DNA of 64,000 nucleotides from a virus (IMGVR_UViG_3300037245_003526:152297-216296), one strand, 5' to 3'. Shown: positions 3,083-62,065, numbered from the stretch's first letter. Translations and numbers: made by a program. Notes: a model not told the origin generated them from the letters alone.

Positions 3083-3775
3083 ATGGAAGGCAAACATATA
3101 TGTCACTTTTGTAAAGAATTTATTTCTGATGATGAAATCGGAGGTTCTAAACATGGAGAACCTGTATGTTCTTCATGTTTAGAATATCTTGAATATGGTT
3201 TTCCAATAAAAAAGAAAGAGGTTAGAAAAAATATGAAAAGTGAAATTCAAAAATATAATGGAAATGAACTAACCGAATTAAAAGACTTCATGTATAATAT
3301 ATTAGAATTTGAAGATGATGATCAAGCTAACACCAATATTACTGCTAATCAAGGAATGGGAGTTCAGCTTACAAATACAATGAAAAAAGAAGGTGTTACG
3401 ATAATTCAAAATCAAAGTATTGTAAATAAAAAGGTCACATCCAATGTAGTTAAAGCTCTTAGATTATTGGATAAAATTAAAGATAATTCAGTAAGAACTA
3501 TCGAGATAGAAACAGAGAACAAAAATATCCCAAAAATAACTATAGACCATATAGTTCAAGTTATAGAATGGATAGCTTCAAAAGATCTAACACTAAAAGA
3601 ATTTGATAAATTAATGAGAGGTTTTTATAGTAGAGCTGTAATTGATAAAAATGGTAGTAGTAAACAAGCTTCTGTAATTCTTGGGTGTAGTCAAAGTACA
3701 GCCAGCGTTTATTCAAGAGGAGGAGATGATGTTCTTGATAAAATAAATGGAAATCAATTAGAGGTTATTGAATAA
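3083..3775 (+). CDS. hypothetical protein, N-terminal Cys cluster and C-terminal HTH-like segment
   Basis: CHFCKE..CSSC near the N-terminus; KQASVILGCSQSTASVYSRG resembles a helix-turn-helix. Confidence 0.4.
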   Translation: MEGKHICHFCKEFISDDEIGGSKHGEPVCSSCLEYLEYGFPIKKKEVRKNMKSEIQKYNGNELTELKDFMYNILEFEDDDQANTNITANQGMGVQLTNTMKKEGVTIIQNQSIVNKKVTSNVVKALRLLDKIKDNSVRTIEIETENKNIPKITIDHIVQVIEWIASKDLTLKEFDKLMRGFYSRAVIDKNGSSKQASVILGCSQSTASVYSRGGDDVLDKINGNQLEVIE

Positions 3776-4226
3776 AATGAAACTTGAATCGTGGGAAGTA
3801 ATATGTGATAAATGTAATGGAGACTCATTTGTAGATATAGGAGATAAAAATTATTCTGTAGTATGCCCAAAATGTATAGGTGATGGAAAACTAGATTTTA
3901 TTGAAAATATCACTGGAAAGAAAAAACTTATATGGAAGCCAAGAAGTGAAGGAGCATCTAAATTATGTCAACTTAATGTAAGAAGATTAATTACATATAT
4001 TGAAAAAATAGTTCGATGTATTCTTGATGAACATATTAATAATTATAATAAGAATGTTGTTTTTTCTAAGGTTGATAATATTTTAGATCTCTTAAAAAAC
4101 CGTAAAGCATTCAAATGGTATGAACTTGAAATTATACCTTTGAAGAATAGATCAAACTTAGATATAGTTATAAGACCTCCATTAATAGATGAATCATTTA
4201 AAATATCGTTTACGTATACTTCATAA
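3768..4226 (+). CDS. DnaJ-type zinc-finger (CxxCxGxG x2) family protein, isolated paralogue
   Basis: WEVICDKCNGDS...CPKCIGDGKLDFIENITGKKK has the same motif as the 45.7-47.8 kb tandem family. Confidence 0.5.
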   Translation: MNKMKLESWEVICDKCNGDSFVDIGDKNYSVVCPKCIGDGKLDFIENITGKKKLIWKPRSEGASKLCQLNVRRLITYIEKIVRCILDEHINNYNKNVVFSKVDNILDLLKNRKAFKWYELEIIPLKNRSNLDIVIRPPLIDESFKISFTYTS

Positions 4227-4350: not shown

Positions 4351-4962
4351 ATGAAAAGTGAAAACATATGTCTATTTGATATGGACGGTACAATAGTTGA
4401 TTTTGATTCTCAAATGCAAATAGACTTAGAAAAAATGAGAAGTCCTGATGAACCAATTGTTGATCCATGGGATCGTAATTATCCATATATGCAAGCAAGA
4501 AAGTATTCTATTATGAGTCAAGCTGGTTGGTGGAGAAATTTGAAACCAATTGCTGGAGGAATGAATCTTTTAAATGAAGCAGTCCTGATGGGTTTTAATG
4601 TTCATATATTAACTAAAGGACCAGTATTAAGACCTGATGCATGGAAAGAAAAAGTTGAATGGTGTCAAGATCATTTAAATCTAAAAGAAGATAAGATTAA
4701 AATGACTATCACTGAAAATAAAGGTATGGTATATGGTAAAATTTTAGTTGATGACTTTCCTCCATATGTTAAAAAGTGGCTTGAAAATAGACCAAGAGGT
4801 TTAGTTATTATGCCTACTTGTGATTATAATAAAAAATATGAACATCCTAATGTTGTAAAAATTGATTATAATAATCTTGAGAGTGTTTTATACGCTCTCT
4901 CATGTATGAAAAAAGTATTAGATAGAAAACCTAATGAGAAATTATTATTAAACAAAATTTGA
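4351..4962 (+). CDS. HAD-superfamily hydrolase (5'-nucleotidase-like)
   Basis: N-terminal LFDMDGTIVDFD = the HAD DxDGT motif. Confidence 0.6.
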   Translation: MKSENICLFDMDGTIVDFDSQMQIDLEKMRSPDEPIVDPWDRNYPYMQARKYSIMSQAGWWRNLKPIAGGMNLLNEAVLMGFNVHILTKGPVLRPDAWKEKVEWCQDHLNLKEDKIKMTITENKGMVYGKILVDDFPPYVKKWLENRPRGLVIMPTCDYNKKYEHPNVVKIDYNNLESVLYALSCMKKVLDRKPNEKLLLNKI

Positions 4963-4969
4963 AAGGAAA

Positions 4970-5491
4970 TTGATGAAAGTAATTAATTTATTCGGAGGAC
5001 CTGGTTCAGGAAAATCAACTACTGCTGCAGGATTATTCTTCAAAATGAAAATGTCAGATGAAATATCTAGTGTTGAATTAGTTACAGAATTTGCAAAAGA
5101 TTTAGTATATGCGGAAAGATTAAAAGAACTAAGACCTGAAAATCAGATGTATGTAACAACTAAACAATATAGCAGATTAAATAGATTAATAGGTAATGTC
5201 GATTATGTAATAACTGATTCACCTATTATACAAGGATTATTATATACTACTTGGAATTATTTTCCTTCATTCAAACCATTGGTTAAAGAAATATTTGACT
5301 CATTTGAAAATATAAATATATTTTTGAATAGAACTAAACCTTATAAAACATACGGAAGAGCTCAAACAGAATGTGAAGCAGATATTGTAAGTTTCAATAT
5401 ATTAATCTTTTTAAAGAATAATAATATTCCTTATATTACTGTTGATGGTGATAAAGATGCACCTGATACTATTTATAAATATATAATATAA
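4970..5491 (+). CDS. P-loop NTPase / (deoxy)nucleotide kinase-like
   Basis: Walker A GGPGSGKST at the N-terminus; ~170 aa. Confidence 0.5.
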   Translation: MMKVINLFGGPGSGKSTTAAGLFFKMKMSDEISSVELVTEFAKDLVYAERLKELRPENQMYVTTKQYSRLNRLIGNVDYVITDSPIIQGLLYTTWNYFPSFKPLVKEIFDSFENINIFLNRTKPYKTYGRAQTECEADIVSFNILIFLKNNNIPYITVDGDKDAPDTIYKYII

Positions 5492-17373: not shown

Positions 17374-17973
17374 ATGAGAATTAATTTGAAAAGATTATTA
17401 GATAAGAAAGATGTAATTAAGAATGGTCATTTTCAACTAACATCCGGTCGTCATTCTGATACTTATATTAATAAGGATTCAATTTATTGTATTCCTGAAT
17501 TATTTGAATTAATAATTTTAGAAATGTCCTTAATAATAAGGAACTCTTTTCATTATGACATAATTACAGGTCCAGCAATAGCAGGTGCTGTTTTAGCTGC
17601 TCCAATTGCTAACTCTCTTTCTACTATATTTATTTATCCTGAGAAGGTTCAATTGTGTTCACTTGATTACGAAGTTGTAGATGAAGAAATGCAATTCAGA
17701 AGAGGATATGATAAAGTTTTAGAGAATAATATTAATGTTGTAATAGTTGAGGATATAATAACTACTGGAAAGTCAGTAGAATTGACAACTGAAGCAATTG
17801 AAAAACATGGTGCTCAAGTTAGTGGTATAGTATCAATATGGAATAGGACTGGATGGAAAACAGATAAGTGTTCAACAGTATCTTTAATAGATGAACCAGT
17901 TGAATCTTGGGATCCTGAATCATGTCCATTGTGTGTTGAAGGTATTCCATTACAAAATCCAAAAGAATTATAG
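17374..17973 (+). CDS. pyrE: orotate phosphoribosyltransferase-like (type I PRTase)
   Basis: GHFQLTSGRHSDTYIN resembles the OPRT N-terminus; VVIVEDIITTGKS is a PRPP-binding motif. Confidence 0.55.
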   Translation: MRINLKRLLDKKDVIKNGHFQLTSGRHSDTYINKDSIYCIPELFELIILEMSLIIRNSFHYDIITGPAIAGAVLAAPIANSLSTIFIYPEKVQLCSLDYEVVDEEMQFRRGYDKVLENNINVVIVEDIITTGKSVELTTEAIEKHGAQVSGIVSIWNRTGWKTDKCSTVSLIDEPVESWDPESCPLCVEGIPLQNPKEL

Positions 17974-34542: not shown

Positions 34543-34811
34543 AAGATGAAGAAGTATATAAAATGGCATTAGAAAAATGGGGACTCAAAGCTCAAGTAGG
34601 AATGTTTATAGAAGAAGTTGGAGAAGCTCTTACTGCTATAAATCATTTTGAAAGAGGTAGAATACCCATAGAAGAACTCATTGAAGAATTTGTAGATGTA
34701 TTTTTAATGGCGAATCAAATGAGATATATTCATAAAGAAACATTTGATAAGATTTATAAATATAAACTTAATAGAGTAAAAAAGAAATTAGGTCTGGAGG
34801 TTGATATATGA
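34539..34811 (+). CDS. MazG-like nucleotide pyrophosphohydrolase (small)
   Basis: EEVGEALTAI...FVDVFLMANQ; start reassigned to an ATG overlapping the upstream stop (ATGA). Confidence 0.4.
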   Translation: MKDEEVYKMALEKWGLKAQVGMFIEEVGEALTAINHFERGRIPIEELIEEFVDVFLMANQMRYIHKETFDKIYKYKLNRVKKKLGLEVDI

Positions 34812-35800
34812 GTAGATTGATTTATGTACCTCAATACCCAACTAAGATGAGATACTCTGAATGGTGGTTTGGTAAGTTAGCAAAAGAATTCAATAAACAT
34901 TTTGATGAAGTTTATATACTTGGAGATGATTCAGAGGTATATTATAGAGGTGAATCAGTAGCATTTTCTCCAGTAGATCAATCAATAAAATTTGAAACTA
35001 GTCAAATAAAACATTATATGAATATCGAACTTAGAGATGATGATATTTTATTTTTAGCTGATATTAGCTTTCCAGGAATTTTCCCAAATGTATTATTTCA
35101 TAAACGTCCAAAAAATTGTTTTGCATTTTGTCATGGTACTGCAAAAAATAAATATGATTATTATTCTAAAGATAAAAAATCAAAATTTGGAATAGAAACT
35201 AATCAATCAAAAATATTTGATGCTATATTTGTAGGATCAAAATATCATAAAGATAAATTAGGTTGGGATAATACTATAGTAACTACTCTTCCTCCTCCAC
35301 CAGACTATATAATTAAACCATCAACCTATATTAAAAAGACAAGAGATATAATTAGTGTTGCTAGACCTTGTGTACAAAAAGTTAATAAAACTATTGAAAA
35401 GAAAGTATCTAAATGGTTTTCTCCAATTGAAAGAAAAGAAGTTATTGAATGGACAAACTATTGTGATTTTCTTTCATCAGCAAAAGCATTACTTATATCT
35501 ACTAAAGAGGATACATTTAATTATACAATTATGGATGCAATAAAATGTGGTTGTGTACCTATAGCACCTAATAACTTATGTTTCCCTGAAATACTTCCCA
35601 GAGATTATCTTTATAATAACGAAAATGAGTTATATACGATTATAAATAAAGTCCTTGATGGGGATATGGGTGTACCTGAGTTATTGTGCCAGGAACAAGT
35701 AAATGGGTTTTATGACAACATATGTTATATAATGAAAGAGAATAGACCCTATATAGGATTAACAAATTGTGATTTTAATGAAGCTATGGAAGGAATATAA
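34808..35800 (+). CDS. glycosyltransferase (GT-B fold, GT4-like C-terminus)
   Basis: EDTFNYTIMDAIKCGCVPIAPN resembles the GT4 E..G..L.EAM..G.P.I motif. Confidence 0.45.
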   Translation: MSRLIYVPQYPTKMRYSEWWFGKLAKEFNKHFDEVYILGDDSEVYYRGESVAFSPVDQSIKFETSQIKHYMNIELRDDDILFLADISFPGIFPNVLFHKRPKNCFAFCHGTAKNKYDYYSKDKKSKFGIETNQSKIFDAIFVGSKYHKDKLGWDNTIVTTLPPPPDYIIKPSTYIKKTRDIISVARPCVQKVNKTIEKKVSKWFSPIERKEVIEWTNYCDFLSSAKALLISTKEDTFNYTIMDAIKCGCVPIAPNNLCFPEILPRDYLYNNENELYTIINKVLDGDMGVPELLCQEQVNGFYDNICYIMKENRPYIGLTNCDFNEAMEGI

Positions 35801-37869: not shown

Positions 37870-40800
37870 ATGTTTTCGATAAAAGACTCGTTCGCTGATT
37901 GTTCTAAATGCTCCCTATCAAACGCACCTTCCTGTATACTTGAAACTAATTCAAAAAGTGACTTATCAAAAGTTGACGTGGTATTCGTAAGTGAGAATCC
38001 AGGTAAGAATGAAGTTGAAAAACAGGTTCCGTTGATAGGGAAAGCAGGACAAACATTTAGAAAGTATTTTAACAAGTATATAAAGAAAGAGTGTAAGTGG
38101 TTATTAACGAATTGTGTTTTATGTCTTACCCTTGATGAAAAAGGTAATACAGGAAATCCGGAAGATGAAGTTATAGATAGATGTAAAGAAAATTGTTTTA
38201 GGATTATTGAAGCATGTAATCCAAAATTAATAGTTCTTATGGGTACATCTCCAATGAAAGCTTTTGGTCTTGGTAAAAGTGGAATAACTAATCTAAGAGG
38301 AAAGATGTTTAATTGGAAAGGTACTCAAGTTTTATTAACTGTTCATCCGTCTTATGTAAATAGAAATAGAACATTTGAAGAAAAGTTTGAAAGAGATATA
38401 ATAAGCGCAGCTAACATAGTAGCATTTTTGGATAAACCTATACAAATAGATGTAGATGCAAGTGAAGCAGAAAAAGGAGAAAAAGGAATATTCAGATATA
38501 AGATTCCGGATAAGTTTTATACTGATGATTTTAGATTAGTTGATATTCAATATCTTAATAAAACAAATGAAGTACTTTATATATTCAGGGATAGAGATAA
38601 TAAGAAAGTATATCATAAAGAGTGTGATGATTATATAGCGTATGTTACACCAGAAGGGTTACCACCACGAAAGATAATTCCTTATGATCAGTTACACCAA
38701 ATAAAAGTTTCATATAAGGAAAAAGTAAAATTAGATTTTGAAACTACTTATGAAGGTGATCTTAGAGTAACAGTAAAACATGCTATGGATTATTATCATT
38801 TTAATAAAGCGGAAGCAGATAAAATAAATTCTAATATAATGTTTGCTGATATTGAGATAGATACAGGAATTGATAATAAATCTTTTCCGCATCCAAAAGA
38901 AGCTAAGTATCCAATTAATATGATTTCAACTGTATATCATAAAAAAGTTATATGTTATGTAATAGATAATAATACAGATCCTATAGAAGAACAAGAAGGT
39001 GCTGAAATAAAAATATTTAAAAATGAGCGTAAGATGCTTACTACTTTCATTGCTGACTTTAAAGAAACTGATCCTGATTTTATTGCTGGTTGGAATGCAA
39101 TATCATTCGACCTTGAATATATTTTCAATAGACTTCCAAGAATAAAAATATCAAAAGAAAGTTTTTCAAAGTTTGGAGAATTCTATGTTGATGGTTTTAG
39201 ATATGTATGTAACCTTCCTGGTTGTATAGTATTAGATCAATTATTCTTATATAAGTCATTTACATTTACTAAAAAAGAAAATTATAAACTTGGTACAATT
39301 GGAGAAATTGAAGTAAAGGTATCTAAGGTTAAAATGGAATTTCCTATAAACGAAATGTATTATAAAGATATTAATAAACTAATTGAATATAATATAAGGG
39401 ACTCCGTACTTCTAGATAAATTGGAAGATAAACTTGGACATATAAATTTATTGAATGAGTTAAGGATAATATGTAATTCAAGTTTTGATGGAGCAAGTTC
39501 CCCATTCGGTCAAGTGGATTCTATAATAGTTTCATTCTTGAGAGAAAAAGGATTAGCATCTAAGAATTCAAATCCGCATGTTCCTAAAAAAGATTATCCA
39601 GGAGCATTTGTTCTTGAACCAACACCAGGTGTTTATGATTATGCAGCTGACCTTGATTATACATCACTATATCCATCGTTAATTATGACATATAATATAG
39701 GGGTTAATAATTTTGTTATGAGGACTGAGGACCCTGCTGTTGGTCATGATATAGCATATAACCCTGATAGTATGTCAGAGGAAATAACTATTATTGATGA
39801 TCCAACTTTTGAAAAGAAAAGAATTTTTATGAAGAAAGAAGCTATATTAAAAAAGATAAAAGATGAAAATCTAATTCATACTATTAATGGATGTTTCTTC
39901 AAAAATCATTCTGACGAGGTATCAATTTATTCACAGGTTCTTGAAAGTCTTTTAAGTGGTAGACGAGCATATAAAAAGAAGATGCTTGATGCTAAAGAAG
40001 CTGGAGATGAACAGTTGAAGGATTTTTATAATACTAAACAGATGGTTTATAAGGTTCTTGCTAACTCCTTATATGGAGTAATTGCAAATAAAGCTTTTAG
40101 GTTTTTTGATATTAATTGTGCTGCAGCAATAACTTTAGGAGGACAAGAAACATTAAAGACTTCGATAATAGAAGGTGATGCCTATATGACATTTTTAAAG
40201 GGTGATTCAAAAGACCCATTAGAAGGAGTTGTTGATGTTACTAGAAAAGAAGTCTATGATAAAGTAATGCCAAACCGAAAACCAAAAAATATAATAACAG
40301 GTGATACAGATTCAATTTTTATTTGTTTTGAAAAATTTAAAGGAAAGAAAACTGATGAAATGATAATAGGTTGGTGTAATAGAATGCAGGATTATTTAAA
40401 CAGTATATCAATTCAAAAAACTATTGCTCGTCATAATGTTCCTTCTAAATATAATAAATTAGAACTTAAAAATGAGTTAGTAATAAGAAGGGGACTATTT
40501 CTTGCAAAGAAATACTATTCAATATATGTAACAAATCAAGAAGGCAGAGCTATTGATGAAATAGTTTATATGGGTATTTCAGTAAAGAGATCAGATACTC
40601 CATCTCATACAAAGGTTTTTCTAAAAGAGTTATTAGATATTATTTTAAAATCCGAATCATTTGGTTTGCCTCTTTTATTTAAGTTTATAAATCAAAAAGA
40701 AAAAGAATTTATTAAACTTATAAAAGAAGGTTCTAAAACAGTAGCAAAACCGGTTGGTTGGAATAAACCTCTTAAAGAATATAAGAGTTTACCAGAAGGT

Positions 40801-41115
40801 GTTAGAGGAATGGCAAACTTTAATGAAGTATCATATCCTATACATTCAATTGGTAATAGGGGATATCTATTTCATGTTAACGGAATTGATCTTGATAAAG
40901 CTCCACAAGATGTTGTTGATAATTATAATAAAAATATGTTAGTAAAAGGAAAGAAATTAGATATTGTTGTTGTACCAGATGAAGAAGAAACTTTACCTGA
41001 TTATTATAATCCAAATGTAAAAATGATGTTAGCTAAATCATTTAAAGAACGATATGAACTTATTTTGAAACCATTAACAGAAGCTAAGAAGAAAGAAGAA
41101 ATAATGACTATATAA
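37870..41115 (+). CDS. family B DNA polymerase with 3'-5' exonuclease domain
   Basis: 1081 aa; DLDYTSLYPSLI (motif A), ITGDTDSIF (motif C, YGDTDS-like), KxxxNSxYG-like NSLYGV (motif B). Confidence 0.9.
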   Translation: MFSIKDSFADCSKCSLSNAPSCILETNSKSDLSKVDVVFVSENPGKNEVEKQVPLIGKAGQTFRKYFNKYIKKECKWLLTNCVLCLTLDEKGNTGNPEDEVIDRCKENCFRIIEACNPKLIVLMGTSPMKAFGLGKSGITNLRGKMFNWKGTQVLLTVHPSYVNRNRTFEEKFERDIISAANIVAFLDKPIQIDVDASEAEKGEKGIFRYKIPDKFYTDDFRLVDIQYLNKTNEVLYIFRDRDNKKVYHKECDDYIAYVTPEGLPPRKIIPYDQLHQIKVSYKEKVKLDFETTYEGDLRVTVKHAMDYYHFNKAEADKINSNIMFADIEIDTGIDNKSFPHPKEAKYPINMISTVYHKKVICYVIDNNTDPIEEQEGAEIKIFKNERKMLTTFIADFKETDPDFIAGWNAISFDLEYIFNRLPRIKISKESFSKFGEFYVDGFRYVCNLPGCIVLDQLFLYKSFTFTKKENYKLGTIGEIEVKVSKVKMEFPINEMYYKDINKLIEYNIRDSVLLDKLEDKLGHINLLNELRIICNSSFDGASSPFGQVDSIIVSFLREKGLASKNSNPHVPKKDYPGAFVLEPTPGVYDYAADLDYTSLYPSLIMTYNIGVNNFVMRTEDPAVGHDIAYNPDSMSEEITIIDDPTFEKKRIFMKKEAILKKIKDENLIHTINGCFFKNHSDEVSIYSQVLESLLSGRRAYKKKMLDAKEAGDEQLKDFYNTKQMVYKVLANSLYGVIANKAFRFFDINCAAAITLGGQETLKTSIIEGDAYMTFLKGDSKDPLEGVVDVTRKEVYDKVMPNRKPKNIITGDTDSIFICFEKFKGKKTDEMIIGWCNRMQDYLNSISIQKTIARHNVPSKYNKLELKNELVIRRGLFLAKKYYSIYVTNQEGRAIDEIVYMGISVKRSDTPSHTKVFLKELLDIILKSESFGLPLLFKFINQKEKEFIKLIKEGSKTVAKPVGWNKPLKEYKSLPEGVRGMANFNEVSYPIHSIGNRGYLFHVNGIDLDKAPQDVVDNYNKNMLVKGKKLDIVVVPDEEETLPDYYNPNVKMMLAKSFKERYELILKPLTEAKKKEEIMTI

Positions 41116-41130
41116 AAAAAGGAGAATATT

Positions 41131-41325
41131 ATGTCAGATGAAAAGAAAGAAGTTCTTGTATCTAATAAAGCTCAATGTAATCAATGTAAAACTATAATTG
41201 AATCAACACACAGACATGATTTTAAATATTGTGCTTGTGGTGCTATTTTTGTTGATGGAGGTTTAGATTATATTAGACGCGGAGGTCAGCTTGAAGATAT
41301 AATTGACCTGTGTGAATATGAATAA
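41131..41325 (+). CDS. small zinc-ribbon protein
   Basis: CNQCK...CACG; RBS AAAGGAGAATATTATG. Confidence 0.4.
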   Translation: MSDEKKEVLVSNKAQCNQCKTIIESTHRHDFKYCACGAIFVDGGLDYIRRGGQLEDIIDLCEYE

Positions 41326-41343: not shown

Positions 41344-41365
41344 GAGAACATATTAATATAAATTG
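41344..41365 (+). promoter_or_regulatory. promoter-like motif GAGAACATATTAATATAAATTG
   Basis: GAACATAT-family motif upstream of queE. Confidence 0.35.
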
Positions 41366-41377
41366 AAAGGGGTGAAA

Positions 41378-42049
41378 ATGGAATCAGTTAAACTAATTGA
41401 AAACTTTTATAGTTTCCAAGGAGAGGGTCCGGATTGTGGAAAATCAATGGTAATCATTAGATTCAAATATTGTGATAGAGTAGAAAATAAAAATCCATGC
41501 CAATGGTGTGATACTCTAGTTAAAATGAGAATTCAAAATGAAGCTGAATATTCAATTAAAGATATTCAGTCAGGAATAAAAAAACATAAATGTGGTATAT
41601 TAATAACTGGTGGTGAACCTACTTATAGGAATAATCTACCTCAAACAATTGCACTTCTTAATCAACTTGAATATCCTATAGCAAATGTAGAAACTAATGG
41701 TCATCAATTATGTAAATTAAGAAGTACCATATCATTAGATTCAAGAAATATAAAATTCATATTCTCACCAAAATTATTTTCAAGAAAAGATTTAGTTGAA
41801 GCAAGAGATATAATAAAAATTGTAAAAAATGATCCGAGGGTATATTTAAAAGTTGTATGGGATTATCTTCCTTTAACTAAAGAATTTCTTTATAGTTTAA
41901 GAGAAGTTGATAATTCAAAAATTTTTATAATGCCTCAGGGTAAAACTAAAGAAGAATTGTTTAAATGTGCACCAGATGTATTTGATTTATGTGAAGAGTT
42001 AAAGTTTAATTTTTCAAGTCGAGCACATATAATTTATGACTTTGTTTAG
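41378..42049 (+). CDS. queE: 7-carboxy-7-deazaguanine synthase (QueE, radical SAM)
   Basis: FYSFQGEGPDCGKSMVIIRFKYC...CQWCDT and ILITGGEPT match the QueE N-terminus and Cys triad; start moved to an Met with RBS (the track start lies in the promoter motif). Confidence 0.65.
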   Translation: MESVKLIENFYSFQGEGPDCGKSMVIIRFKYCDRVENKNPCQWCDTLVKMRIQNEAEYSIKDIQSGIKKHKCGILITGGEPTYRNNLPQTIALLNQLEYPIANVETNGHQLCKLRSTISLDSRNIKFIFSPKLFSRKDLVEARDIIKIVKNDPRVYLKVVWDYLPLTKEFLYSLREVDNSKIFIMPQGKTKEELFKCAPDVFDLCEELKFNFSSRAHIIYDFV

Positions 42050-42067
42050 GATGAAAGGAAAAGAAAA

Positions 42068-42310
42068 GTGGCGTATTATAAAAACAATAGTAGTATTGTA
42101 GAAAGAAATAATGGAATATTGGTAGTTCGAAAACCAGGTGAACCATTTGAAATTCTACTTAAGCGATTCAAAAAGAAAGTAATGAATTGTCAAATATTAC
42201 AGGAATTGAAAATGAGGCAAGAGTTCGAAAAACCAAGTCAGAAAAGGATGCGAAAAAAACGAGCTGCAATTAAGAGGATGAAAGACGCAAATAAACAACA
42301 ACGAAATTAA
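42068..42310 (+). CDS. rpsU: ribosomal protein bS21 homologue
   Basis: ILVVRKPGEPFEILLKRFKKKV...LKMRQEFEKPSQKRMRKKRAAIKR fits the S21 consensus (VxVRxNEpfexALRRFKR....REfyEKPtt.RKR). Confidence 0.7.
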   Translation: MAYYKNNSSIVERNNGILVVRKPGEPFEILLKRFKKKVMNCQILQELKMRQEFEKPSQKRMRKKRAAIKRMKDANKQQRN

Positions 42311-42323
42311 AAGGAGAATTAGA

Positions 42324-42605
42324 ATGAGTGATTTAGTTGCAATTGGTGATCATGTTATAGGGAGAGAAATAATTGAAACAACAAGTAAAGGTGGGATAAT
42401 AATCCCTGAAACTGCTGCACCAACTACTCCTCAACTTGAATGTGAAGTAGTATCAGTTGGTCCAGATGTATCATCAGCTCTAAAAGTTGGGGATACTATA
42501 TATTGTCATCAACGAGGTGGACAAGCTCTTATGTTGGATGGTGTATTATATAAAGTTTTGAAGCTTGGTGAAGTATATGGAAGGAAGGTGAGGAATGGGG
42601 AATAA
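42324..42605 (+). CDS. groES: GroES-like co-chaperonin (Hsp10)
   Basis: VAIGDHVIGREIIETTSKGGIIIPETAA...KVGDTIY fits the GroES pattern (rvlvkr.e.e.kt.gGIvlpd.a). Confidence 0.7.
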   Translation: MSDLVAIGDHVIGREIIETTSKGGIIIPETAAPTTPQLECEVVSVGPDVSSALKVGDTIYCHQRGGQALMLDGVLYKVLKLGEVYGRKVRNGE

Positions 42606-43395
42606 TATTATAGAAATACAGGCAAGAGATTTATATGATGCCTGGTTTCAATGTATTTATAAAGTAATTGATGAAGGTAATGTATTCAAGATTGATGAAG
42701 GATCTTATGCAGGAAGTGAAAGATTAGAATTTGATCATATTACAGTTCAAATTAAATACCCTGGTTCAAGACCTTTACTTCCTAAAATATCAGAGAGATG
42801 GGCAATACCTGATCCTGTAGAAGAAGGATATCTTAATGACTACCTTCCATATTTAATGACTGGCGAATTGAAGGAAGGTGAATCATATACTTATGGTCAA
42901 AGGATTTGTAACTATCCTATTCCTCCAATTAAAGATATGTCTACTAAGGGTATTTATATAGATGATTCAGAAATATGGAATAATGATAAAATAATATCCA
43001 TAGAAGGTTATACTTCTTTCTTAAATCAAATGGAACTACTTATTTGGACATATAAAAATAAAGGTTTTAGAAATAACCAAATGGTCCTCCAAGTAGCACA
43101 TCCATCTGATATGGTATTACAAGATCCTCCATGTTTGAGACATATCGATACTAGAATTCAAGATGGTAAACTTCACTTCTTTCCCTATTTCAGATCATGG
43201 GATCTGTGGGGTGGTTTTCCGGCAAATCTGGGAGCACTTCAATTGATGAAGGAATATATAGCAATGGAAATTGGAGTGGAGGATGGGGAAATAATTGCTT
43301 CATCAAAAGGGTTACATCTTTATAAACATGTTTTCGATATTGCTAAAATAATTTCAATTAGAGAAGAAGTAGAACTAAATTATGGATCAATGTGA
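42595..43395 (+). CDS. thymidylate-synthase-fold deoxynucleotide hydroxymethylase (dCMP/dUMP hydroxymethyltransferase-like)
   Basis: ...VLQDPPCLRHID has the TS catalytic PPC(H) motif; ~266 aa. Confidence 0.55.
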   Translation: MGNNIIEIQARDLYDAWFQCIYKVIDEGNVFKIDEGSYAGSERLEFDHITVQIKYPGSRPLLPKISERWAIPDPVEEGYLNDYLPYLMTGELKEGESYTYGQRICNYPIPPIKDMSTKGIYIDDSEIWNNDKIISIEGYTSFLNQMELLIWTYKNKGFRNNQMVLQVAHPSDMVLQDPPCLRHIDTRIQDGKLHFFPYFRSWDLWGGFPANLGALQLMKEYIAMEIGVEDGEIIASSKGLHLYKHVFDIAKIISIREEVELNYGSM

Positions 43396-43473
43396 TCTTA
43401 ATTTTTAACCCACCACCCCCGGATAAAGTGCTCTTCCTAGATTATTAGGAAGGGCACTTTTGAGGTAATAAGA

Positions 43474-44250
43474 ATGGATAAAATAAAAATAGATAAAACA
43501 TTTTTTGACCCAACATTTCCACTCCTAGATAAATTCAGAGAATTAGCACCAGGTTCATACAAACATTGTCAGAACGTTTCTAATATGTGTGAAACAATTG
43601 CTTCCGAGTTGGGTCTTAATATAGAGTTAATAAAGTGTGCTGCTTTATATCATGACTGTGGAAAAATGAATACTCCTCTTTATTTTTCTGAGAATCAATC
43701 AGTAGGAGTTAATATTCATGATACTTTGGATCCATATATGTCATATCATATGATAACTAAACATGTTGGTGATGGAGTTATTCATTTACTACAAGTGGAA
43801 GATATGCCACATGAAGTTATTGAAATAATAAGTCAACATCATGGAGATACAATTGTTCAAGCATTTCATGTTGAAGGTGAACCAGAAGATAAATTTAGAT
43901 ATAAGTGTCCTAGACCTGAATCAACTGAAGCATTAATTTTAATGATAGTAGACTCAGTAGAGGCAACTGCTAAAGCACTCTTTAATAATAATGATAAAGA
44001 AGATACTAAAAAAATAATTTCAAAAGCAATTGATGGAACTGTAGAAAGATTGGCAAATGATCGCCAGCTTGATAATATGAAAATAGGAACACTAAATATA
44101 ACAAAAAAATTCCTTACCAAAGAATTAGAATCAATTTATCATAAGAGGGTATTATATGATACTGCTGAAGATGAAAAAACTGTTGGAGAAGAAATAGATA
44201 ATAAACCAGATATATCTGATGTTCAACAATCAACTCTTGCTGGGGTTTAG
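43474..44250 (+). CDS. HD-domain phosphohydrolase
   Basis: ...YKHCQNVS...AALYHDCGK (H...HD). Confidence 0.55.
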   Translation: MDKIKIDKTFFDPTFPLLDKFRELAPGSYKHCQNVSNMCETIASELGLNIELIKCAALYHDCGKMNTPLYFSENQSVGVNIHDTLDPYMSYHMITKHVGDGVIHLLQVEDMPHEVIEIISQHHGDTIVQAFHVEGEPEDKFRYKCPRPESTEALILMIVDSVEATAKALFNNNDKEDTKKIISKAIDGTVERLANDRQLDNMKIGTLNITKKFLTKELESIYHKRVLYDTAEDEKTVGEEIDNKPDISDVQQSTLAGV

Positions 44251-44267
44251 GTCTTTTTTAATGTTAA

Positions 44268-44286
44268 TGGTAACATATTATAAAGG
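44268..44286 (+). promoter_or_regulatory. promoter-like motif GGTAACATATTATAAAGG
   Basis: GAACATAT-family motif upstream of the TGT-like gene. Confidence 0.35.
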
Positions 44287-44316
44287 AAATTGAATCATTA
44301 AAAAAGGAGAAAATAA

Positions 44317-45708
44317 ATGGCAGAAAGTGGGTATGTTTTAGCGGGTTGCGAAACTCTTTTTACAATATTAAATAATTTTTCTATTAGAAATACAAAGAAT
44401 AGATTTGAAGATCATTTTACACCTAAACAAGTTTCAGATTTTCTATCAAGTAAATGTCATGGTTTCTTACATTCATTTGGACAGAATTTTTCAGGAAAAA
44501 GAAGTTACGCAAAATATATAGATAATGAAGCAAGTATATTTGAATTTATAAGAGACTCGGGTTTTGGAGATGATTGTATATTAAAGATTGATAGCGGTGG
44601 ATTCCAAGCAAGTGTGGGAAGAATTGATAAAAGTGAAACTCAATTATTAATAGATCTTTATTATCAATTTGTAAGAGATAAACATGAAGTGTTTGATAGA
44701 GCATTTATTTTAGACTTACCACCTGGACCAGGATGTACTCTATTTGATTCATTTGATGATATATACACAAAAAATTTAGAAACATATAATATAGCTAAAA
44801 ATCTTCCTGATGAAGCTCGTAAGAAGATAGTTTATATTCATCATTTTCGAACACCAAAATTATGGGATATATATACTGATATATTAAATCAAGATGGAAT
44901 GTTTGAAGCATTTGATTATTTTGGTACTGGTGGTATCGTAGCAAATATGGCAAGTGATGTTTCTATACCATGTATCATATATGTATTACCTTTAATACCA
45001 ATCCTTAAAAAAGCAATTGAAGCAGGAAGAGATAAACTTAAATTTCATATATTAGGTGGATCAAATTTCAGAGATATATTATTTTATGAACTATTTCAAA
45101 AGCATGTTAAAGTACAGCATGGAATTGAATTAGAAATGACTTTTGATTCTAGTGGACTTTATAAAGGTCTTATGATAGGCAGATATTTTTATCATGTTGA
45201 TAATGGAATAATAAAGAAAGTTGATATAAGAAGTCCAAATCTTGATAAAAGATACAACTTCAATAAAAACGTTATTGATATATATGATGATGTAATATCT
45301 GAATTATCTATTCGAAATAATTTTAAACCAATTCCAATAAATATGAATACAGTATATGATGATGAAACTGGTACATTTTTTGAAGAAGTAAAAGTTTATA
45401 CTATGTTTTGTATGTTAGATAGATTTGCTCAAGTACAGCAATTAATGAAATCTAAGGTAGAAGAAATTTATTCATTATATGAAAATGGAGATCTTGAAGA
45501 ATTTAATAAACGTATTGAATTGATAACTAGAAATATTAATGCTGGTAAAATAACTAAAAAACAGAAAGCTAAATCAACTTCAATTATAAGATCATTAGAT
45601 ATGTTAACTGCCTTAGATACTGATAATTGTAAATATATTGTAGATAAATGTTTAGCGAAAGATGAATTCATGGAACTTGATCCAACTTCAAGACTACTTA
45701 CGGTGTAA
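44317..45708 (+). CDS. dpdA: tRNA-guanine transglycosylase (TGT)-family protein, DpdA-like (putative DNA 7-deazaguanine transglycosylase)
   Basis: ILKIDSGGFQASVG matches the TGT DSGGFQ motif; sits beside queE, the hydroxymethylase and the HD hydrolase. Confidence 0.5.
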   Translation: MAESGYVLAGCETLFTILNNFSIRNTKNRFEDHFTPKQVSDFLSSKCHGFLHSFGQNFSGKRSYAKYIDNEASIFEFIRDSGFGDDCILKIDSGGFQASVGRIDKSETQLLIDLYYQFVRDKHEVFDRAFILDLPPGPGCTLFDSFDDIYTKNLETYNIAKNLPDEARKKIVYIHHFRTPKLWDIYTDILNQDGMFEAFDYFGTGGIVANMASDVSIPCIIYVLPLIPILKKAIEAGRDKLKFHILGGSNFRDILFYELFQKHVKVQHGIELEMTFDSSGLYKGLMIGRYFYHVDNGIIKKVDIRSPNLDKRYNFNKNVIDIYDDVISELSIRNNFKPIPINMNTVYDDETGTFFEEVKVYTMFCMLDRFAQVQQLMKSKVEEIYSLYENGDLEEFNKRIELITRNINAGKITKKQKAKSTSIIRSLDMLTALDTDNCKYIVDKCLAKDEFMELDPTSRLLTV

Positions 45709-45709
45709 T

Positions 45710-45925
45710 ATGAAACTAGAAAAATGGGAAACTAAATGTGATCTATGTAGAGGTAAAAAAAAGATTCTTGCAAGAGATAATCCACATTCATATATATATG
45801 TTCATGGTGCAAAAGTAACATGTTCAAAATGTAACGGTACTGGAAAACTTGATTTTATCGAAAAGATAGTTGGGAAAAAATCAGGTAAAGTTAAAATGAG
45901 AAAAGTAGGAGTTTATCATAGATGA
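45710..45925 (+). CDS. DnaJ-type zinc-finger family protein, tandem paralogue 1
   Basis: KLEKWETKCDLCRGKKK...CSKCNGTGKLDFIEKIVGKK; start placed at an internal Met 2 nt after the upstream stop. Confidence 0.45.
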   Translation: MKLEKWETKCDLCRGKKKILARDNPHSYIYVHGAKVTCSKCNGTGKLDFIEKIVGKKSGKVKMRKVGVYHR

Positions 45926-46194
45926 CACTAAAAGAATGGGAATACGTATGTGATAAATGTAAAGGTACTGGATTATGGTGTAAAAATGATGATAAAGACT
46001 GTATTATAGATTTAAGACATTGTGACTCATATATGATAGGTACCAAACAGGGTAATCGTTGTATGTGCCCAAAATGTGATGGATGGGGTAAAGTAGATTT
46101 TATTACAAATATAGTTGGTAAAAAAAAAGTGAATGATTTAAAAATATGGGGTCAAAGAACTTTAAATTTAAGGAGAAAAATAAATGGACTTTAA
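45922..46194 (+). CDS. DnaJ-type zinc-finger family protein, tandem paralogue 2
   Basis: LKEWEYVCDKCKGTG...CPKCDGWGKVDFITNIVGKKK. Confidence 0.45.
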   Translation: MTLKEWEYVCDKCKGTGLWCKNDDKDCIIDLRHCDSYMIGTKQGNRCMCPKCDGWGKVDFITNIVGKKKVNDLKIWGQRTLNLRRKINGL

Positions 46195-46519
46195 TGAGTA
46201 TCAAGACAAATGTAGAAAGACTGCTTTTTATGCACATGGTAAGGAAGGTTTAAAAGTACTATATCCAACTCTTGGCTTAACAGGTGAGTCAGGAGAAGTA
46301 GCTGAAAAAGTAAAGAAGTTATATAGAGATAAAAATGGTGTTATTGATGATGAATTTATTACTAACATAAAAAAAGAGCTTGGAGATGTTATGTGGTATA
46401 TAGCAGCTCTATGTTCCGATTTGAATCTAAGAATGGAAGATGTTGCAAAAGAAAACATCGAGAAATTGTTAGATAGAAAATCAAGGGGCGTGCTCCATGG
46501 TGATGGAGACAACAGGTAA
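46184..46519 (+). CDS. MazG-like NTP pyrophosphohydrolase
   Basis: GLTGESGEVAEKV...ELGDVMWYIAAL are the MazG EExxE/D and helix motifs. Confidence 0.55.
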   Translation: MDFNEYQDKCRKTAFYAHGKEGLKVLYPTLGLTGESGEVAEKVKKLYRDKNGVIDDEFITNIKKELGDVMWYIAALCSDLNLRMEDVAKENIEKLLDRKSRGVLHGDGDNR

Positions 46520-46712
46520 AAGAAAACTACTTGAAGAATGGGAAGAGTGGTGTTCTAATTGTCATGGTTTTGGTCGTTTTGGATTTCATGAACCAAATAA
46601 GAATAGAGACTCGTTTCCAAAGATATGTCCTAAATGTAGAGGTACAGGAAAATTTGATTTTATCGAAAAAATAACCGGGAAAAAGAAATGGGTGTGGGGT
46701 GATGAAACTTGA
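46497..46712 (+). CDS. DnaJ-type zinc-finger family protein, tandem paralogue 3
   Basis: LLEEWEEWCSNCHGFG...CPKCRGTGKFDFIEKITGKKK. Confidence 0.45.
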   Translation: MVMETTGKRKLLEEWEEWCSNCHGFGRFGFHEPNKNRDSFPKICPKCRGTGKFDFIEKITGKKKWVWGDET

Positions 46713-47043
46713 AGAGTGGGAAGAAGCATGTGATAAATGTAAAGGTTTGGGGTGTAAATATGAATACTTAGGTAATGATAACTCATTTCCAGTACGATGT
46801 AAAAAATGTAATGGTACTGGGAAACTTGACTTTATTGAAAAAATAGTTGGGAAAAAAACTTCTGTGGCAAATTCATATACAGTACATAATTGTTCAAATA
46901 GAGATATAGAAATATATGATTTGGGTGTTAAAATTCCTAAAGGTAATACTATTGATTTATCTATTATGTTTACTAATGACCAAATAGAACAATCAGAAGA
47001 TTTAAAAACTTATACAAGGGAGGGGGTACCAAACATTGGGTAG
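46699..47043 (+). CDS. DnaJ-type zinc-finger family protein, tandem paralogue 4
   Basis: KLEEWEEACDKCKGLG...CKKCNGTGKLDFIEKIVGKK. Confidence 0.45.
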   Translation: MMKLEEWEEACDKCKGLGCKYEYLGNDNSFPVRCKKCNGTGKLDFIEKIVGKKTSVANSYTVHNCSNRDIEIYDLGVKIPKGNTIDLSIMFTNDQIEQSEDLKTYTREGVPNIG

Positions 47044-47383
47044 TATAATTACAGGAAAACCTACAATAGTTAGTCCAACTTTTAGTGTAAAAACAGCTAA
47101 ACCTGGTTATCCATTATCTACTAAAAAACTAAAAGATTATGAAGAAGTATGCGATCAATGTAATGGTTTAGGTTTAACAAAATATAGAGACAATGAATTT
47201 AATCCAATGTCATCTAGTTATAGATGTCCTAAATGTTCCGGTTTTGGTAAACTAGATTTTATTGAAAAAATTGTAGGTAAAAAATTAAAATATGGTGAAG
47301 CAGAACGAATGAGAATAGATTCATCTGGTAATGTTGGAATTGGATCAGTAGCTCCAACACAAAAATTGGAAATTAGATTATGA
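47036..47383 (+). CDS. DnaJ-type zinc-finger family protein, tandem paralogue 5 (fibre-repeat-like C-terminus)
   Basis: YEEVCDQCNGLG...CPKCSGFGKLDFIEKIVGKK; C-terminal SSGNVGIGSVAPTQKLEI resembles the phage tail-fibre repeat. Confidence 0.45.
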   Translation: MGSIITGKPTIVSPTFSVKTAKPGYPLSTKKLKDYEEVCDQCNGLGLTKYRDNEFNPMSSSYRCPKCSGFGKLDFIEKIVGKKLKYGEAERMRIDSSGNVGIGSVAPTQKLEIRL

Positions 47384-47754
47384 AAATAAAAGAATACGAA
47401 TATATATGTGACGAATGTGATGGTTTAGGATTAGTTAAAAGAAAATATGAAGAGTTTGAAGTTGTAACTAAAAGTACTACATGTCCAAAATGTTTAGGTG
47501 ACGGAAAACTTGACTTTATTGAAAATATAACTGGTAAGAAAGCTAAGACATTTACTATTGAATCTGATGCTAACCCATTTACTATTACACCTGATCCTAG
47601 TTTGTCTGGTGGAATAGTTTGGAAAGATGGAGGTGTACCAGCTGGTCCAACAGAAGGTGATGCTTATTTTGATCAAATAAAAGATTCTATGTTTGTTTAC
47701 GATGGAAAAGAATGGGTTGAAGTATGTGATCCTGTATCTATAGGAGGGGTATGA
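47380..47754 (+). CDS. DnaJ-type zinc-finger family protein, tandem paralogue 6
   Basis: YEYICDECDGLG...CPKCLGDGKLDFIENITGKK. Confidence 0.45.
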   Translation: MKIKEYEYICDECDGLGLVKRKYEEFEVVTKSTTCPKCLGDGKLDFIENITGKKAKTFTIESDANPFTITPDPSLSGGIVWKDGGVPAGPTEGDAYFDQIKDSMFVYDGKEWVEVCDPVSIGGV

Positions 47755-47757
47755 AAT

Positions 47758-49263
47758 TTGATTACTGAAACTTTTTTAAACGCATGTTTTAGTGTTATAT
47801 TAAATAAGACAATTAAAGTTAAGAAGAGTCCGGTATTATATAGAGACATATTAGCTATTCTTGACTTCTATGAAAAGAAAGAAAAATTAGATATATCTGT
47901 ATCAATAAAAACAAAATTTGAATGCTTAAAAAAGATTTGCGATCTTAAAGTTACAAATGATAAAACTAATGAAAATATTTTAGATAGTATAAGCTTTAGT
48001 GAAAAATATAAACCTTTACATGATTTTTTAGAGACGAAAGTAACTGAGATAATTACTGAACAAATAGTCCAGGATAATGTTCGTCAGATAAGATTACGAA
48101 AAAAGCTTAACTCATTATTTTCTAATTATGATTCATTATCTGATTTTCTTGAGCAACTTAAGGATGGTTCATTTGAAAGTATTGACGATTTACTATTGGA
48201 TTATGAAGCTATAATAAAGACATTGTATTCTAATATGATGTCTGAGAATAGAGGGGTTGCTATTGAAGCATCATCATCTTTAGACTTAGTAGAAGATGAT
48301 TTTGGACCTGTTCTTGATTTAATTAAGAAAAAATATTCAAGAGCTAATACTACATCTACGGGTTATAGTGTTCTTGATAATGAAGTTTTTAATGGTGGGT
48401 TTGAACCATCAAGAATATATATAATAGGTGGTTCATCTGGAGCAGGAAAATCTACGTTATTAAATAACTTCATTGTAAACTCAGCAACAAGATCATCAGA
48501 AGTTTTTGAAAAGGTAGAAGTAACTCAACCACAGAAAAATGGAATTAAGAGGGTTTATATTTATATAACTCTTGAGAACACAATTGAGGAATCTCTTTTA
48601 AGAACATATCAACCTATGTTTAATAAGAGTACAAAAGATGTTCTTAAAGATATAGAAGATGGTGTAAATATAAAAGAAAAAATATTAAATGAATTGAAAA
48701 AAACGGATAGTACAATAGTAATGAAATACTTTCCATCTAAGTCTGTATCATGTTTAGATCTAATGGAAGTATTAGATGAAGTTGCATCAGAATATGGAAG
48801 AGATACAATAAAGGGATTATATGTAGATTATTTGGATATTTTGAAAACTGATACAAGATATGATATGTACAGAATTGAACTTGGAGATATTACATTATCT
48901 TTAAAATCTCTAGCAGTTGAATATGAGATACCAGTTATAGTACCAACACAGTTAAATAAATCTGCATATGATATACAGGATTCAAGAGAATTAAGTGTTA
49001 GTCAAATTTCAGAATCTGTTAAGAAAGTAGAACATGCTGATTGTGTAATGTTATTATCAAAAGATAAAATTGACGATACTAAAGTTTATGCCCAAGTAGG
49101 AAAGAATAGAAGTGGAAAAGCAAATGTCAATTTAGAATTTAAAGTTAACTTTAGTCATTTTAAATTCTTGTCTGGAAACAAAGTATCAAATGATAAAAAA
49201 CCTGACTCAACAACAAAACAAAAAGAAATAAAAGACTTTTCAGGATTTGGAGGAGGATTTTAA
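47758..49263 (+). CDS. DnaB-like replicative DNA helicase
   Basis: Walker A IIGGSSGAGKSTLL; YVDYLDIL (DnaB H3-like); RecA-like C-terminal domain. Confidence 0.6.
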   Translation: MITETFLNACFSVILNKTIKVKKSPVLYRDILAILDFYEKKEKLDISVSIKTKFECLKKICDLKVTNDKTNENILDSISFSEKYKPLHDFLETKVTEIITEQIVQDNVRQIRLRKKLNSLFSNYDSLSDFLEQLKDGSFESIDDLLLDYEAIIKTLYSNMMSENRGVAIEASSSLDLVEDDFGPVLDLIKKKYSRANTTSTGYSVLDNEVFNGGFEPSRIYIIGGSSGAGKSTLLNNFIVNSATRSSEVFEKVEVTQPQKNGIKRVYIYITLENTIEESLLRTYQPMFNKSTKDVLKDIEDGVNIKEKILNELKKTDSTIVMKYFPSKSVSCLDLMEVLDEVASEYGRDTIKGLYVDYLDILKTDTRYDMYRIELGDITLSLKSLAVEYEIPVIVPTQLNKSAYDIQDSRELSVSQISESVKKVEHADCVMLLSKDKIDDTKVYAQVGKNRSGKANVNLEFKVNFSHFKFLSGNKVSNDKKPDSTTKQKEIKDFSGFGGGF

Positions 49264-61576: not shown

Positions 61577-62065
61577 CTATCTATTTATCGGATCATCAAT
61601 AGGTTCATAAGGATATTTTATCCATACATTACCATCTATATCATGTAAATAATAATCAGGTTCAAATACTTTTGCACTTGTTTTATGTACATTTCTTATA
61701 GTTTCTGGTTTTCTATGAAGAACAGCAGTAGTACACTTTGGGTATTGTCTTTCAAACCAATCTAACGTCTCACCCGTTTCTATTACATCATCAACAACAA
61801 GTAGAAAATGATCAATAATATCAGCATCATCAAGATTAGTTCTTAATTCTATCTTCATATTGTATGCAATATATTGTGCTATTGACATTCCACCTTTAGG
61901 AATTCCATAAACATATTTAATTTTTGGAATCTTTGGTTTTAAATATTCAGTAAATTTCCATAATAATTCATAATAACTATTAGGGGGAATAGTCAATATA
62001 GGTTTACCATCTTCATTTTCTTTTATATATTTATGATAATATTTTGGTGTAACTTTTAAATTCAT
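61577..62065 (-). CDS. type I phosphoribosyltransferase (purine/pyrimidine PRTase-like)
   Basis: LLVVDDVIETGETL is a PRPP-binding motif. Confidence 0.5.
   Translation of the reverse strand: MNLKVTPKYYHKYIKENEDGKPILTIPPNSYYELLWKFTEYLKPKIPKIKYVYGIPKGGMSIAQYIAYNMKIELRTNLDDADIIDHFLLVVDDVIETGETLDWFERQYPKCTTAVLHRKPETIRNVHKTSAKVFEPDYYLHDIDGNVWIKYPYEPIDDPINR

Follow-up and report, generated by a model that had tools for sequence, protein, structure and literature searches.

A 64,000-nucleotide stretch of viral DNA (IMGVR_UViG_3300037245_003526:152297-216296, hereafter the window) comes from a large, T4-like, uncultivated phage that is rich in A+T (approximately 30% GC). The core of its interval 41378-45708 is a conserved pair of genes encoding a QueE-type radical S-adenosylmethionine (SAM) enzyme and a divergent relative of the tRNA-guanine transglycosylases (TGTs) and of DpdA, and this pair lies in the replication block that runs from the family-B DNA polymerase gene (PolB) to the replicative helicase gene (DnaB). 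The best explanation of the whole, which we regard as probable, is that the QueE and DpdA-like proteins together install a 7-deazaguanine base, most probably in the phage DNA. The second protein, of 463 aa, represents a new, large and widespread DpdA-like subfamily, characterized by a length of approximately 460 aa, the lack of a Zn site, a helical C-terminal domain and a position within a block of replisome genes.

A conserved gene pair between PolB and DnaB

A first-pass annotation had described the interval as a four-enzyme DNA-hypermodification module, in which the QueE and DpdA-like proteins were joined by a hydroxymethylase with a thymidylate synthase (TS) fold and by an HD hydrolase. 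All of the open reading frames (ORFs) that it named exist, and the interval holds six co-directional ORFs on the plus strand rather than four, the two not mentioned being homologues of ribosomal protein bS21 and of GroES. The QueE-like enzyme (7-carboxy-7-deazaguanine synthase-like) is encoded at 41378-42049 on the plus strand, in an ORF that opens at a TTG at 41363, and matches PHROG 2076 (‘QueE-like’, 2e-27). The DpdA-like ORF of the TGT superfamily (44317-45708, plus strand) contains the motif ‘DSGGFQ’ and has no family match in any library. Upstream, the block is bounded by PolB (37870-41115, plus strand), which carries an N-terminal family-4 uracil-DNA glycosylase (UDG) domain (Pfam UDG, DNA_pol_B_exo1 and DNA_pol_B), and the conserved downstream neighbour is the DnaB-like helicase gene (47758-49263, plus strand; PF03796, 8.3e-24).

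To compare gene contexts, ORFs in the 10-kb flanks of 45 related IMG/VR loci were matched to those of the window. A QueE-like gene lies on the same strand upstream of the DpdA-like gene in 41 of the 45 loci, and one of the four loci that lack it has zero upstream sequence; PolB is found upstream in 39 loci and DnaB downstream in 39, including the most distant relatives, L005, L006 and L059. The conserved order is PolB, QueE-like, (S21), GroES, (TS-like), DpdA-like, (zinc-ribbon genes), DnaB. In one relative (P0257 of locus L005) the QueE and DpdA-like proteins are fused in a single ORF. The pairing of the two enzymes proposed by the first-pass annotation was thus correct, and the four-enzyme module was not, since the HD gene occurs in only two loci and the TS-like gene in 23, with S21 and GroES standing inside the interval.

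The QueE-like protein and other links to 7-deazaguanine synthesis

The five best NCBIfam matches of the QueE-like protein are all QueE models, each scoring far under its curated cutoff (the best, TIGR03963, gives 53 bits against a cutoff of 260), and Pfam Radical_SAM scores 15.9 against a cutoff of 29.5. Its closest cultured homologues are of the CP220 type, with 32% identity to the QueE of Campylobacter phage CP220. In an alignment of 39 sequences, which included the QueE proteins of phiSM, phiST and immuto, the positions conserved at 90% or more comprise Q14-G-E-G, R28, C32/C41/C44 (CX8CX2C), T77-G-G-E-P and H217. The window protein has the radical SAM cysteine triad, the GGE SAM-binding motif and the substrate motif xQGEG...R (Q14-G15-E16-G17, R28), the last in a region that aligns to the QueE of B. 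multivorans (4njg). In one related locus, QueE carries a Hint domain (intein; L046:1460-3181). The window also encodes a second radical SAM protein, unrelated to QueE, at 1398-2222 (PF04055, 7.8e-10; PHROG 24834).

Additional genes of 7-deazaguanine metabolism accompany the DpdA-like gene in its relatives. Locus L028 encodes a bona fide QueC (PF06508, 1.9e-58) and L047 a Gat-QueC, the fusion of a glutamine amidotransferase with QueC that is used for archaeosine in phage DNA. In L059, where the DpdA-like protein is only about 21% identical to that of the window, QueE is accompanied by QueT, a transporter of queuosine precursors that is encoded 2 kb upstream. When IMG/VR was scanned with QueC, a single contig of this clade came up. 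Given the QueE-like gene in 41 of 45 loci, the one fusion, and the occurrence of QueC, Gat-QueC and QueT in relatives, the link of the DpdA-like gene to 7-deazaguanine is well supported.

Fold and predicted active site of the DpdA-like protein

An AlphaFold2 model of the 463-aa protein, built from 36 relatives, has a mean predicted local distance difference test score (pLDDT) of 90.1 and a predicted template modelling score (pTM) of 0.90. An eight-stranded beta/alpha (TIM) barrel takes up approximately residues 1-335, and the C-terminal part, at approximately 356-445, forms a helical domain. The closest structural neighbours of the barrel are TGT or DpdA enzymes: bacterial TGT (16.8), QTRT2 (16.2) and archaeosine TGT (14.3) are listed with the model, and the best named BFVD matches are phage proteins labelled tRNA-guanine transglycosylase or queuine tRNA-ribosyltransferase.

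Conservation was assessed in an alignment (A3) of 99 full-length family members, reaching down to approximately 20% identity. Only D92, H244, L246 and D277 are invariant, and S93, G95, Q97, F130, D133, N153, H176, G205, G206 and G247 are conserved at 90% or more. The conserved motifs are D92-S-G-G-x-Q, D133, H176, G205-G206, H244-x-L-G and D277, each marking the C-terminal end of a different barrel strand, from strand 3 to strand 8 (E89-92, E128-130, E171-175, E201-204, E240-245 and E271-278 in the model). At the place of the gating phenylalanine the window protein has F96, and the motif aligns to DSGGFQ of Tgt and DSGAF of DpdA1.

In the structure of DpdA, the general acid/base D95 and the gating F99 follow strand 3, D130 and H181 recognize the base, the G206-G207 loop after strand 6 reads the 7-substituent, L236 belongs to the same set, and the nucleophile D256 stands at the start of the strand-8 insertion (PMC10164549). 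On the predicted model, the family residues appear to match DpdA D95/F99, D130, H181, G206-G207, L236 and D256, with nearly the same numbering. D133, H176, G205-G206 and L246 are in register with the DpdA1 profile, and the putative equivalence of D277 to D256 follows from its position in the eighth barrel strand (E271-278). At the levels of fold, active-site motif and gene context, the assignment of the 463-aa protein as a deeply divergent member of the TGT/DpdA superfamily holds, as the first-pass annotation had proposed for a protein that every library missed.

Distribution and sequence relationships of the family

The family comprises 574 clusters at 90% identity (E <= 1e-3, best 1e-260), numbers that identify its members as real genes and not chance ORFs, and an exhaustive profile search gave 336 clusters at 50% identity. 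Nearly all members are approximately 460 aa long and annotated as ‘hypothetical’, on contigs of up to 308 kb from many metagenomes; the contig of the window protein itself is 244,552 bp. Among 185,579 species-representative genomes the family was found on three metagenome-assembled genome (MAG) contigs only, so the close family is essentially viral. A tblastn search of the 463-aa protein against 50,697 deposited phage genomes returned none, and a literature search returned no paper on this 460-aa family and none using the name ‘DpdA5’.

Profile comparisons connect the family to phage DpdA1: its profile reaches 22 bits with the DpdA1 of Cellulophaga phage phiSM, and a two-sequence DpdA1 profile gives its top family score, 32.6 bits, against the member P0176. 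In the window protein, the alignment to the DpdA1 profile runs colinearly through the DSG, LDxxP, xHx, GG and HxLG motifs; on its own, this protein scores only 6.9 bits. E. coli Tgt and three DpdA3 proteins showed no significant profile link to the family, and no match emerged when its profile was compared by hhalign with an alignment of two DpdA3 sequences (probability <1%). Identity of the 463-aa protein to any characterized TGT or DpdA is 16% or less.

Two unusual gene architectures were seen among the relatives. P0189 (L006:441-3350) was considered as a fusion of a DpdA-like domain with DnaB; it depends on read-through of an in-frame TGA, is resolved into two adjacent genes under the standard code, and was discarded as evidence. 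Either the L006 phage reads TGA as sense, or the P0189 gene call is wrong. In P0155 (L062:10001-12055), a DpdA-like domain is fused to GP88 (PF17338) in a bacterial-looking context (serine recombinase, sigma-54 activator, guanylate cyclase), and the DpdA-like family may thus occur on bacterial mobile elements as well.

Proposed mechanism and alternative explanations

Our data are consistent with a model in which QueE would convert 6-carboxy-tetrahydropterin (CPH4) into 7-carboxy-7-deazaguanine (CDG), the CPH4 being supplied either by host FolE and QueD or by phage genes outside the window. The 463-aa TIM-barrel enzyme would flip a guanine out; with D277, at the end of strand 8, as the predicted nucleophile and D92 of the DSGG motif as the general acid/base, the guanine would be displaced via a covalent ribosyl-enzyme intermediate. 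A 7-deazaguanine base would then be installed, namely CDG, or preQ0- or 7-amido-7-deazaguanine (ADG)-type derivatives where QueC or Gat-QueC is available. The substrate would most probably be the phage DNA after replication, in which G-containing restriction sites and other DNA-targeting defences would be made ineffective; disguising the phage DNA from host restriction is the most likely purpose. The inserted base could be CDG, preQ0 made via host QueC, or something else; a DpdA2 inserts CDG when CDG accumulates (PMC10516641). The absence of FolE and QueD from the window and flanks points to the host, or to distant phage genes, as the source of CPH4.

Several results weigh against this interpretation. 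The 463-aa protein matches nothing in Pfam, PHROGs, NCBIfam or PADLOC (E <= 0.1 or 0.01), nor any sequence in the PDB, and the curated models PF01702 (TGT), PF20314 (DUF6610) and PADLOC DpdA fail on it as they do on the distant members. When the family profile was compared with E. coli Tgt by hhalign, only local motif matches were returned, at approximately 22% probability. The residue equivalences to DpdA follow strand order in the predicted model rather than an explicit superposition. The structural Zn site CXCX2CX22H, which is conserved in bacterial DpdA and TGTs, is missing from the 463-aa ORF in a scan for C.C..C, and no cysteine is conserved across the alignment of the family. A motif scan and phmmer with phage references found no FolE, QueD, QueC or QueF in the 64-kb window, as the first-pass annotation had observed for FolE, QueC and QueD; FolE, QueD and QueF are equally missing from the 10-kb flanks of the 45 relatives, and QueC-type genes occur within 10 kb in two of them only, so that the pathway as seen is incomplete. 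Lastly, the window encodes tRNA-Asp(GTC), tRNA-Tyr(GTA) and tRNA-His(GTG), which are classical TGT substrates. Concerning the Zn site, the CxCxxC motif is likewise missing from phiSM DpdA1 and from the two DpdA3 proteins compared, and the motif therefore does not define the phage subfamilies.

Those three tRNAs bring up the alternative that the TGT-fold enzyme acts on tRNA, placing 7-deazaguanine in phage or host GUN-anticodon tRNAs and so tuning translation. Such a role would suit a window that has 21 tRNA genes in all together with S21, and bacterial Tgt has exactly the same DSGGFQ motif. The Zn-binding subdomain of tRNA TGTs is missing, though, profile searches tie the family to phage DpdA1 and not to Tgt, and the gene stands between PolB and DnaB beside QueE, when genes for tRNA TGTs as a rule lie apart from those for synthesis. 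A 2026 survey found that DNA-inserting enzymes co-localize with deazapurine synthesis genes and that tRNA TGTs usually do not, and all phage TGT homologues characterized so far act on DNA (PMC10516641). We infer DNA, not tRNA, as the target, since the fixed PolB-DnaB position, the linkage to synthesis genes and the profile affinity for DpdA1 over Tgt favour DNA, and we consider action on tRNA unlikely.

Modification of DNA by the pair might also take a more specific form. In this minimal two-gene system, QueE and a Zn-less 460-aa DpdA-like enzyme would draw on host CPH4 and write CDG, or an undescribed derivative of it, into DNA, possibly densely and coupled to replication. We put this forward tentatively, as a possibility that we somewhat doubt. 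If the two-gene system is real, the family would rank as a sixth subfamily of DpdA, differing from DpdA1-4 and bacterial DpdA (bDpdA) in its substrate and its partner logic, and would be widespread among large, T4-like, uncultivated phages while escaping all current annotation models. To our knowledge, the deoxynucleoside of CDG (dCDG) has so far been a trace modification only.

A further explanation is that the TGT-fold protein has diverged to other chemistry, such as that of a DNA glycosylase, an apurinic/apyrimidinic (AP)-type activity or another purine-analogue exchange, and that the QueE-like enzyme makes a different radical SAM product. The identity of at most 16% to any characterized TGT or DpdA, the lack of a Zn site, the novel C-terminal helical domain, the scores of the QueE-like protein far under all curated QueE cutoffs, and the missing FolE and QueD (in the window and the 10-kb flanks of 45 relatives) would all fit such a divergence. 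What makes it improbable is that both catalytic aspartates, the base-recognition aspartate and histidine, and the Gly-Gly loop are the most conserved positions of the family, that the QueE-like protein keeps the QGEG...R substrate motif and the cluster cysteines, and that QueC, Gat-QueC and QueT stand beside the gene in independent relatives.

Genes interleaved with the pair

Four further genes lie between QueE and the DpdA-like gene, all on the plus strand. The first two encode the ribosomal protein bS21 homologue (42068-42310; PF01165, 1.5e-15; PHROG 21469, 3.5e-14) and the GroES/Cpn10 co-chaperonin (42324-42605; PF00166, 2.7e-11), which are present in 26 and 35 of the 45 loci, respectively. 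Their position inside the interval indicates that gene order here does not mark out one pathway operon; S21 and GroES are independent host-takeover genes interleaved with the deazaguanine pair.

The third is the TS-fold protein of methanogen type (42595-43395; 23 of 45 loci). The first-pass annotation rightly recognized the TS fold and its PPC motif (PF00303, 36.4 bits against a cutoff of 24.3; ‘DPPC’ is present), and TIGR03283 matches over the full length (6e-28) yet under its equivalog cutoff. Aligned to ThyA structures, the protein keeps the PPC catalytic cysteine, RSWD, the asparagine of FPAN and H-L-Y, and that asparagine is of the type that selects deoxyuridine monophosphate (dUMP), that is, uracil rather than cytosine. 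In L008 the place of the TS-like gene is taken by ThyX, which in L040 and L059 is encoded close by; no locus has both. A dCMP hydroxymethylase was rejected as a candidate, as the selecting position holds Asn and not Asp. A dUMP hydroxymethylase and a TS are not separable by sequence; the displacement by ThyX favours a TS. The dUMP-type asparagine and the replacement by ThyX thus suggest that the gene most likely encodes an ordinary dUMP-to-dTMP synthase serving a genome of 70% A+T, an enzyme that probably has no share in the deazaguanine function. Our literature search returned no paper on MJ0757, the methanogen-type TS.

The fourth gene encodes a stand-alone HD (HDIG) domain protein of PgpH type (43474-44250). 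Residues 12-228 of its 258 match the HD domain of Listeria PgpH/Lmo1466 (PDB 4S1B, 8.3e-36), and the HD...HHG metal ligands are present. The HD/HDIG domain reported by the first-pass annotation is therefore real, and its membership of a module is not borne out: by sequence the protein is PgpH-like, grouping with cyclic-dinucleotide (cyclic di-AMP, c-di-AMP) phosphodiesterases, and it is accessory, being found in two of the 45 IMG/VR loci and in the closest NCBI relative. A role as a deoxynucleoside triphosphate (dNTP) hydrolase was rejected on the PgpH-like match. This stand-alone HD domain of PgpH type, here borne by a phage and shared by only a few of its relatives, could degrade c-di-AMP or defence-related cyclic nucleotides.

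Further genes had been cited by the first-pass annotation in support of a modified, possibly glycosylated pyrimidine. Both MazG genes are confirmed (34485-34811 and 46184-46519), as is the sugar-nucleotidyltransferase (34045-34542; PF01467, 7.5e-17). The LmbE deacetylase has a weak match alone (PIG-L, 8e-4 over 22 residues), and the putative glycosyltransferase (GT; 34808-35800) could not be upheld as such, since neither a family nor a PDB match was detectable. In many relatives these putative GT and LmbE genes precede PolB, whether the TS-like gene is present or not; GT, LmbE and TS-like as a co-inherited set was rejected for want of any dependence in their co-occurrence, and the idea of a glycosylated hydroxymethyl-pyrimidine is unsupported here.

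In its full form, that idea would be a double hypermodification, in which a glycosylated 5-hydroxymethyl-pyrimidine made by the TS-fold enzyme, GT, LmbE and nucleotidyltransferase accompanies 7-deazaguanine, and HD and MazG clear canonical dNTPs. The TS-fold enzyme is indeed very divergent, with a full-length match to the methanogen-type TS only, the cytidylyltransferase and the two MazG genes are real, and many relatives keep the putative GT and LmbE genes, but the ThyA catalytic set with its dUMP-selecting asparagine, the replacement by ThyX, the equal frequency of GT and LmbE with and without the TS-like gene, the ‘GT’ without a detectable family, the PgpH-like HD protein that is no dNTPase, and the presence of HD and of the second MazG in only two of 45 loci each leave it very unlikely.

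Other features of the window

Downstream of the DpdA-like gene, small zinc-ribbon genes and a MazG gene precede the DnaB-like helicase, beyond which lie a T4-type portal, a prohead protease and a gp23-like capsid gene; the capsid protein is 25% identical or less to that of any cultured phage. Six tandem small paralogues at 45662-47754, with a seventh at 3768-4226, have two CxxC pairs and the motif GKLDFIE[KN]I[VT]GKK. They show weak DnaJ-CXXCXGXG similarity, and most related loci have copies in the stretch from the DpdA-like gene to DnaB. On the other side of the pair, the UDG-PolB fusion is kept in relatives, and in L059 (L059:15-5628) an intein interrupts the polymerase, whose two halves are separated by ThyX and a DUF6557 gene. 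A small DUF7695 protein is encoded after PolB (41131-41325), and 105 bases of its DNA share 74% identity with Geobacillus virus E3; no other deposited phage matches the region at the nucleotide level.

The 21 tRNA genes lie at 4243-26587 and include one with a CTA anticodon (amber suppressor, called ‘Pyl’) at 26513-26587. TAG still terminates 11 of the 78 ORFs, QueE and HD among them, and any recoding of TAG would therefore be partial or stage-specific. Auxiliary genes of nucleotide and nicotinamide adenine dinucleotide (NAD) metabolism (NAMPT, two phosphoribosyltransferase-domain proteins, a dihydroorotate-dehydrogenase-like protein and orotidine monophosphate decarboxylase) are found at 4-1386, 17374-17973, 22936-23652, 25090-25767 and 61577-62065 (minus strand), alongside a dNMP-kinase-like gene (4970-5491) and a 5′-deoxynucleotidase-like gene (4351-4962). 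An island of higher GC content (0.35-0.39, against approximately 0.29) on the minus strand at 26680-33386 encodes TerB, a Na/Ca-exchanger membrane protein, unnamed acidic proteins and a 936-aa protein with a major-vault-protein shoulder domain.

Significance and comparison with known systems

Modification of DNA with 7-deazaguanine is a major anti-restriction strategy of phages, and has been surveyed with hidden Markov models for DpdA1-4 and bDpdA. As the 463-aa family escapes all of those models, the number of deazaguanine genomes among environmental large phages is probably underestimated. With QueE beside it and FolE, QueD and QueC not seen nearby, the family lends itself well to asking which base can be installed by a DpdA and how far phages depend on host precursors. 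The profile of alignment A3 and the catalytic predictions for D92 and D277 make the hypothesis directly testable.

The bacterial enzymes differ most from the 463-aa protein in architecture and in setting. Bacterial Tgt has a Zn subdomain that the 463-aa protein lacks, gives no significant profile match and occurs in another gene context. Bacterial DpdA, the DNA preQ0 insertase of the Dpd system of Salmonella Montevideo (PDB 7UI4), is 13% identical to the 463-aa protein, which is without the CXCX2CX22H Zn site and the Ins8 subdomain and instead has a helical C-terminal domain of approximately 100 aa. Neither DpdB (a ParB-like ATPase) nor DpdC was seen as a partner here, and the neighbours are phage replication genes rather than those of a restriction-modification island.

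Among the viral groups, DpdA4/DUF6610 of archaeal viruses such as HVTV-1 is likewise a divergent viral TGT-like group, with no PF20314 match to the 463-aa protein at E <= 0.1 and with different hosts and genome types. The DpdA3 of phages (Cellulophaga phiST, Campylobacter CP220 and Flavobacterium immuto_2-6A), by which G is replaced completely, resembles the present family in being a very divergent TGT-like enzyme of large myoviruses that standard annotation overlooked; the window QueE is nearest to the QueE of CP220-type DpdA3 phages (32% identity), and some DpdA3 phages also end the pathway at CDG. Unlike the 463-aa protein, DpdA3 is approximately 260 aa long and has LDN in place of DSGG, and there is no detectable sequence similarity between the two (hhalign probability <1%; phmmer not significant).

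Phage DpdA1 (phiSM CEPG_00053; the Enterobacteria phage 9g group) is the sole characterized subfamily with a detectable sequence link to the family, at 22-33 bits. DpdA1 phages normally have the full FolE-QueD-QueE-QueC set, whereas QueE alone is linked here, and DpdA1 is approximately 240-300 aa long as against 460 aa. Like the 463-aa protein, DpdA1 is encoded beside Que genes and is without the CxCxxC site. Overall, the gene pair of the window is a variant of the known 7-deazaguanine type, and its DpdA-like branch is one that was previously unrecognized.

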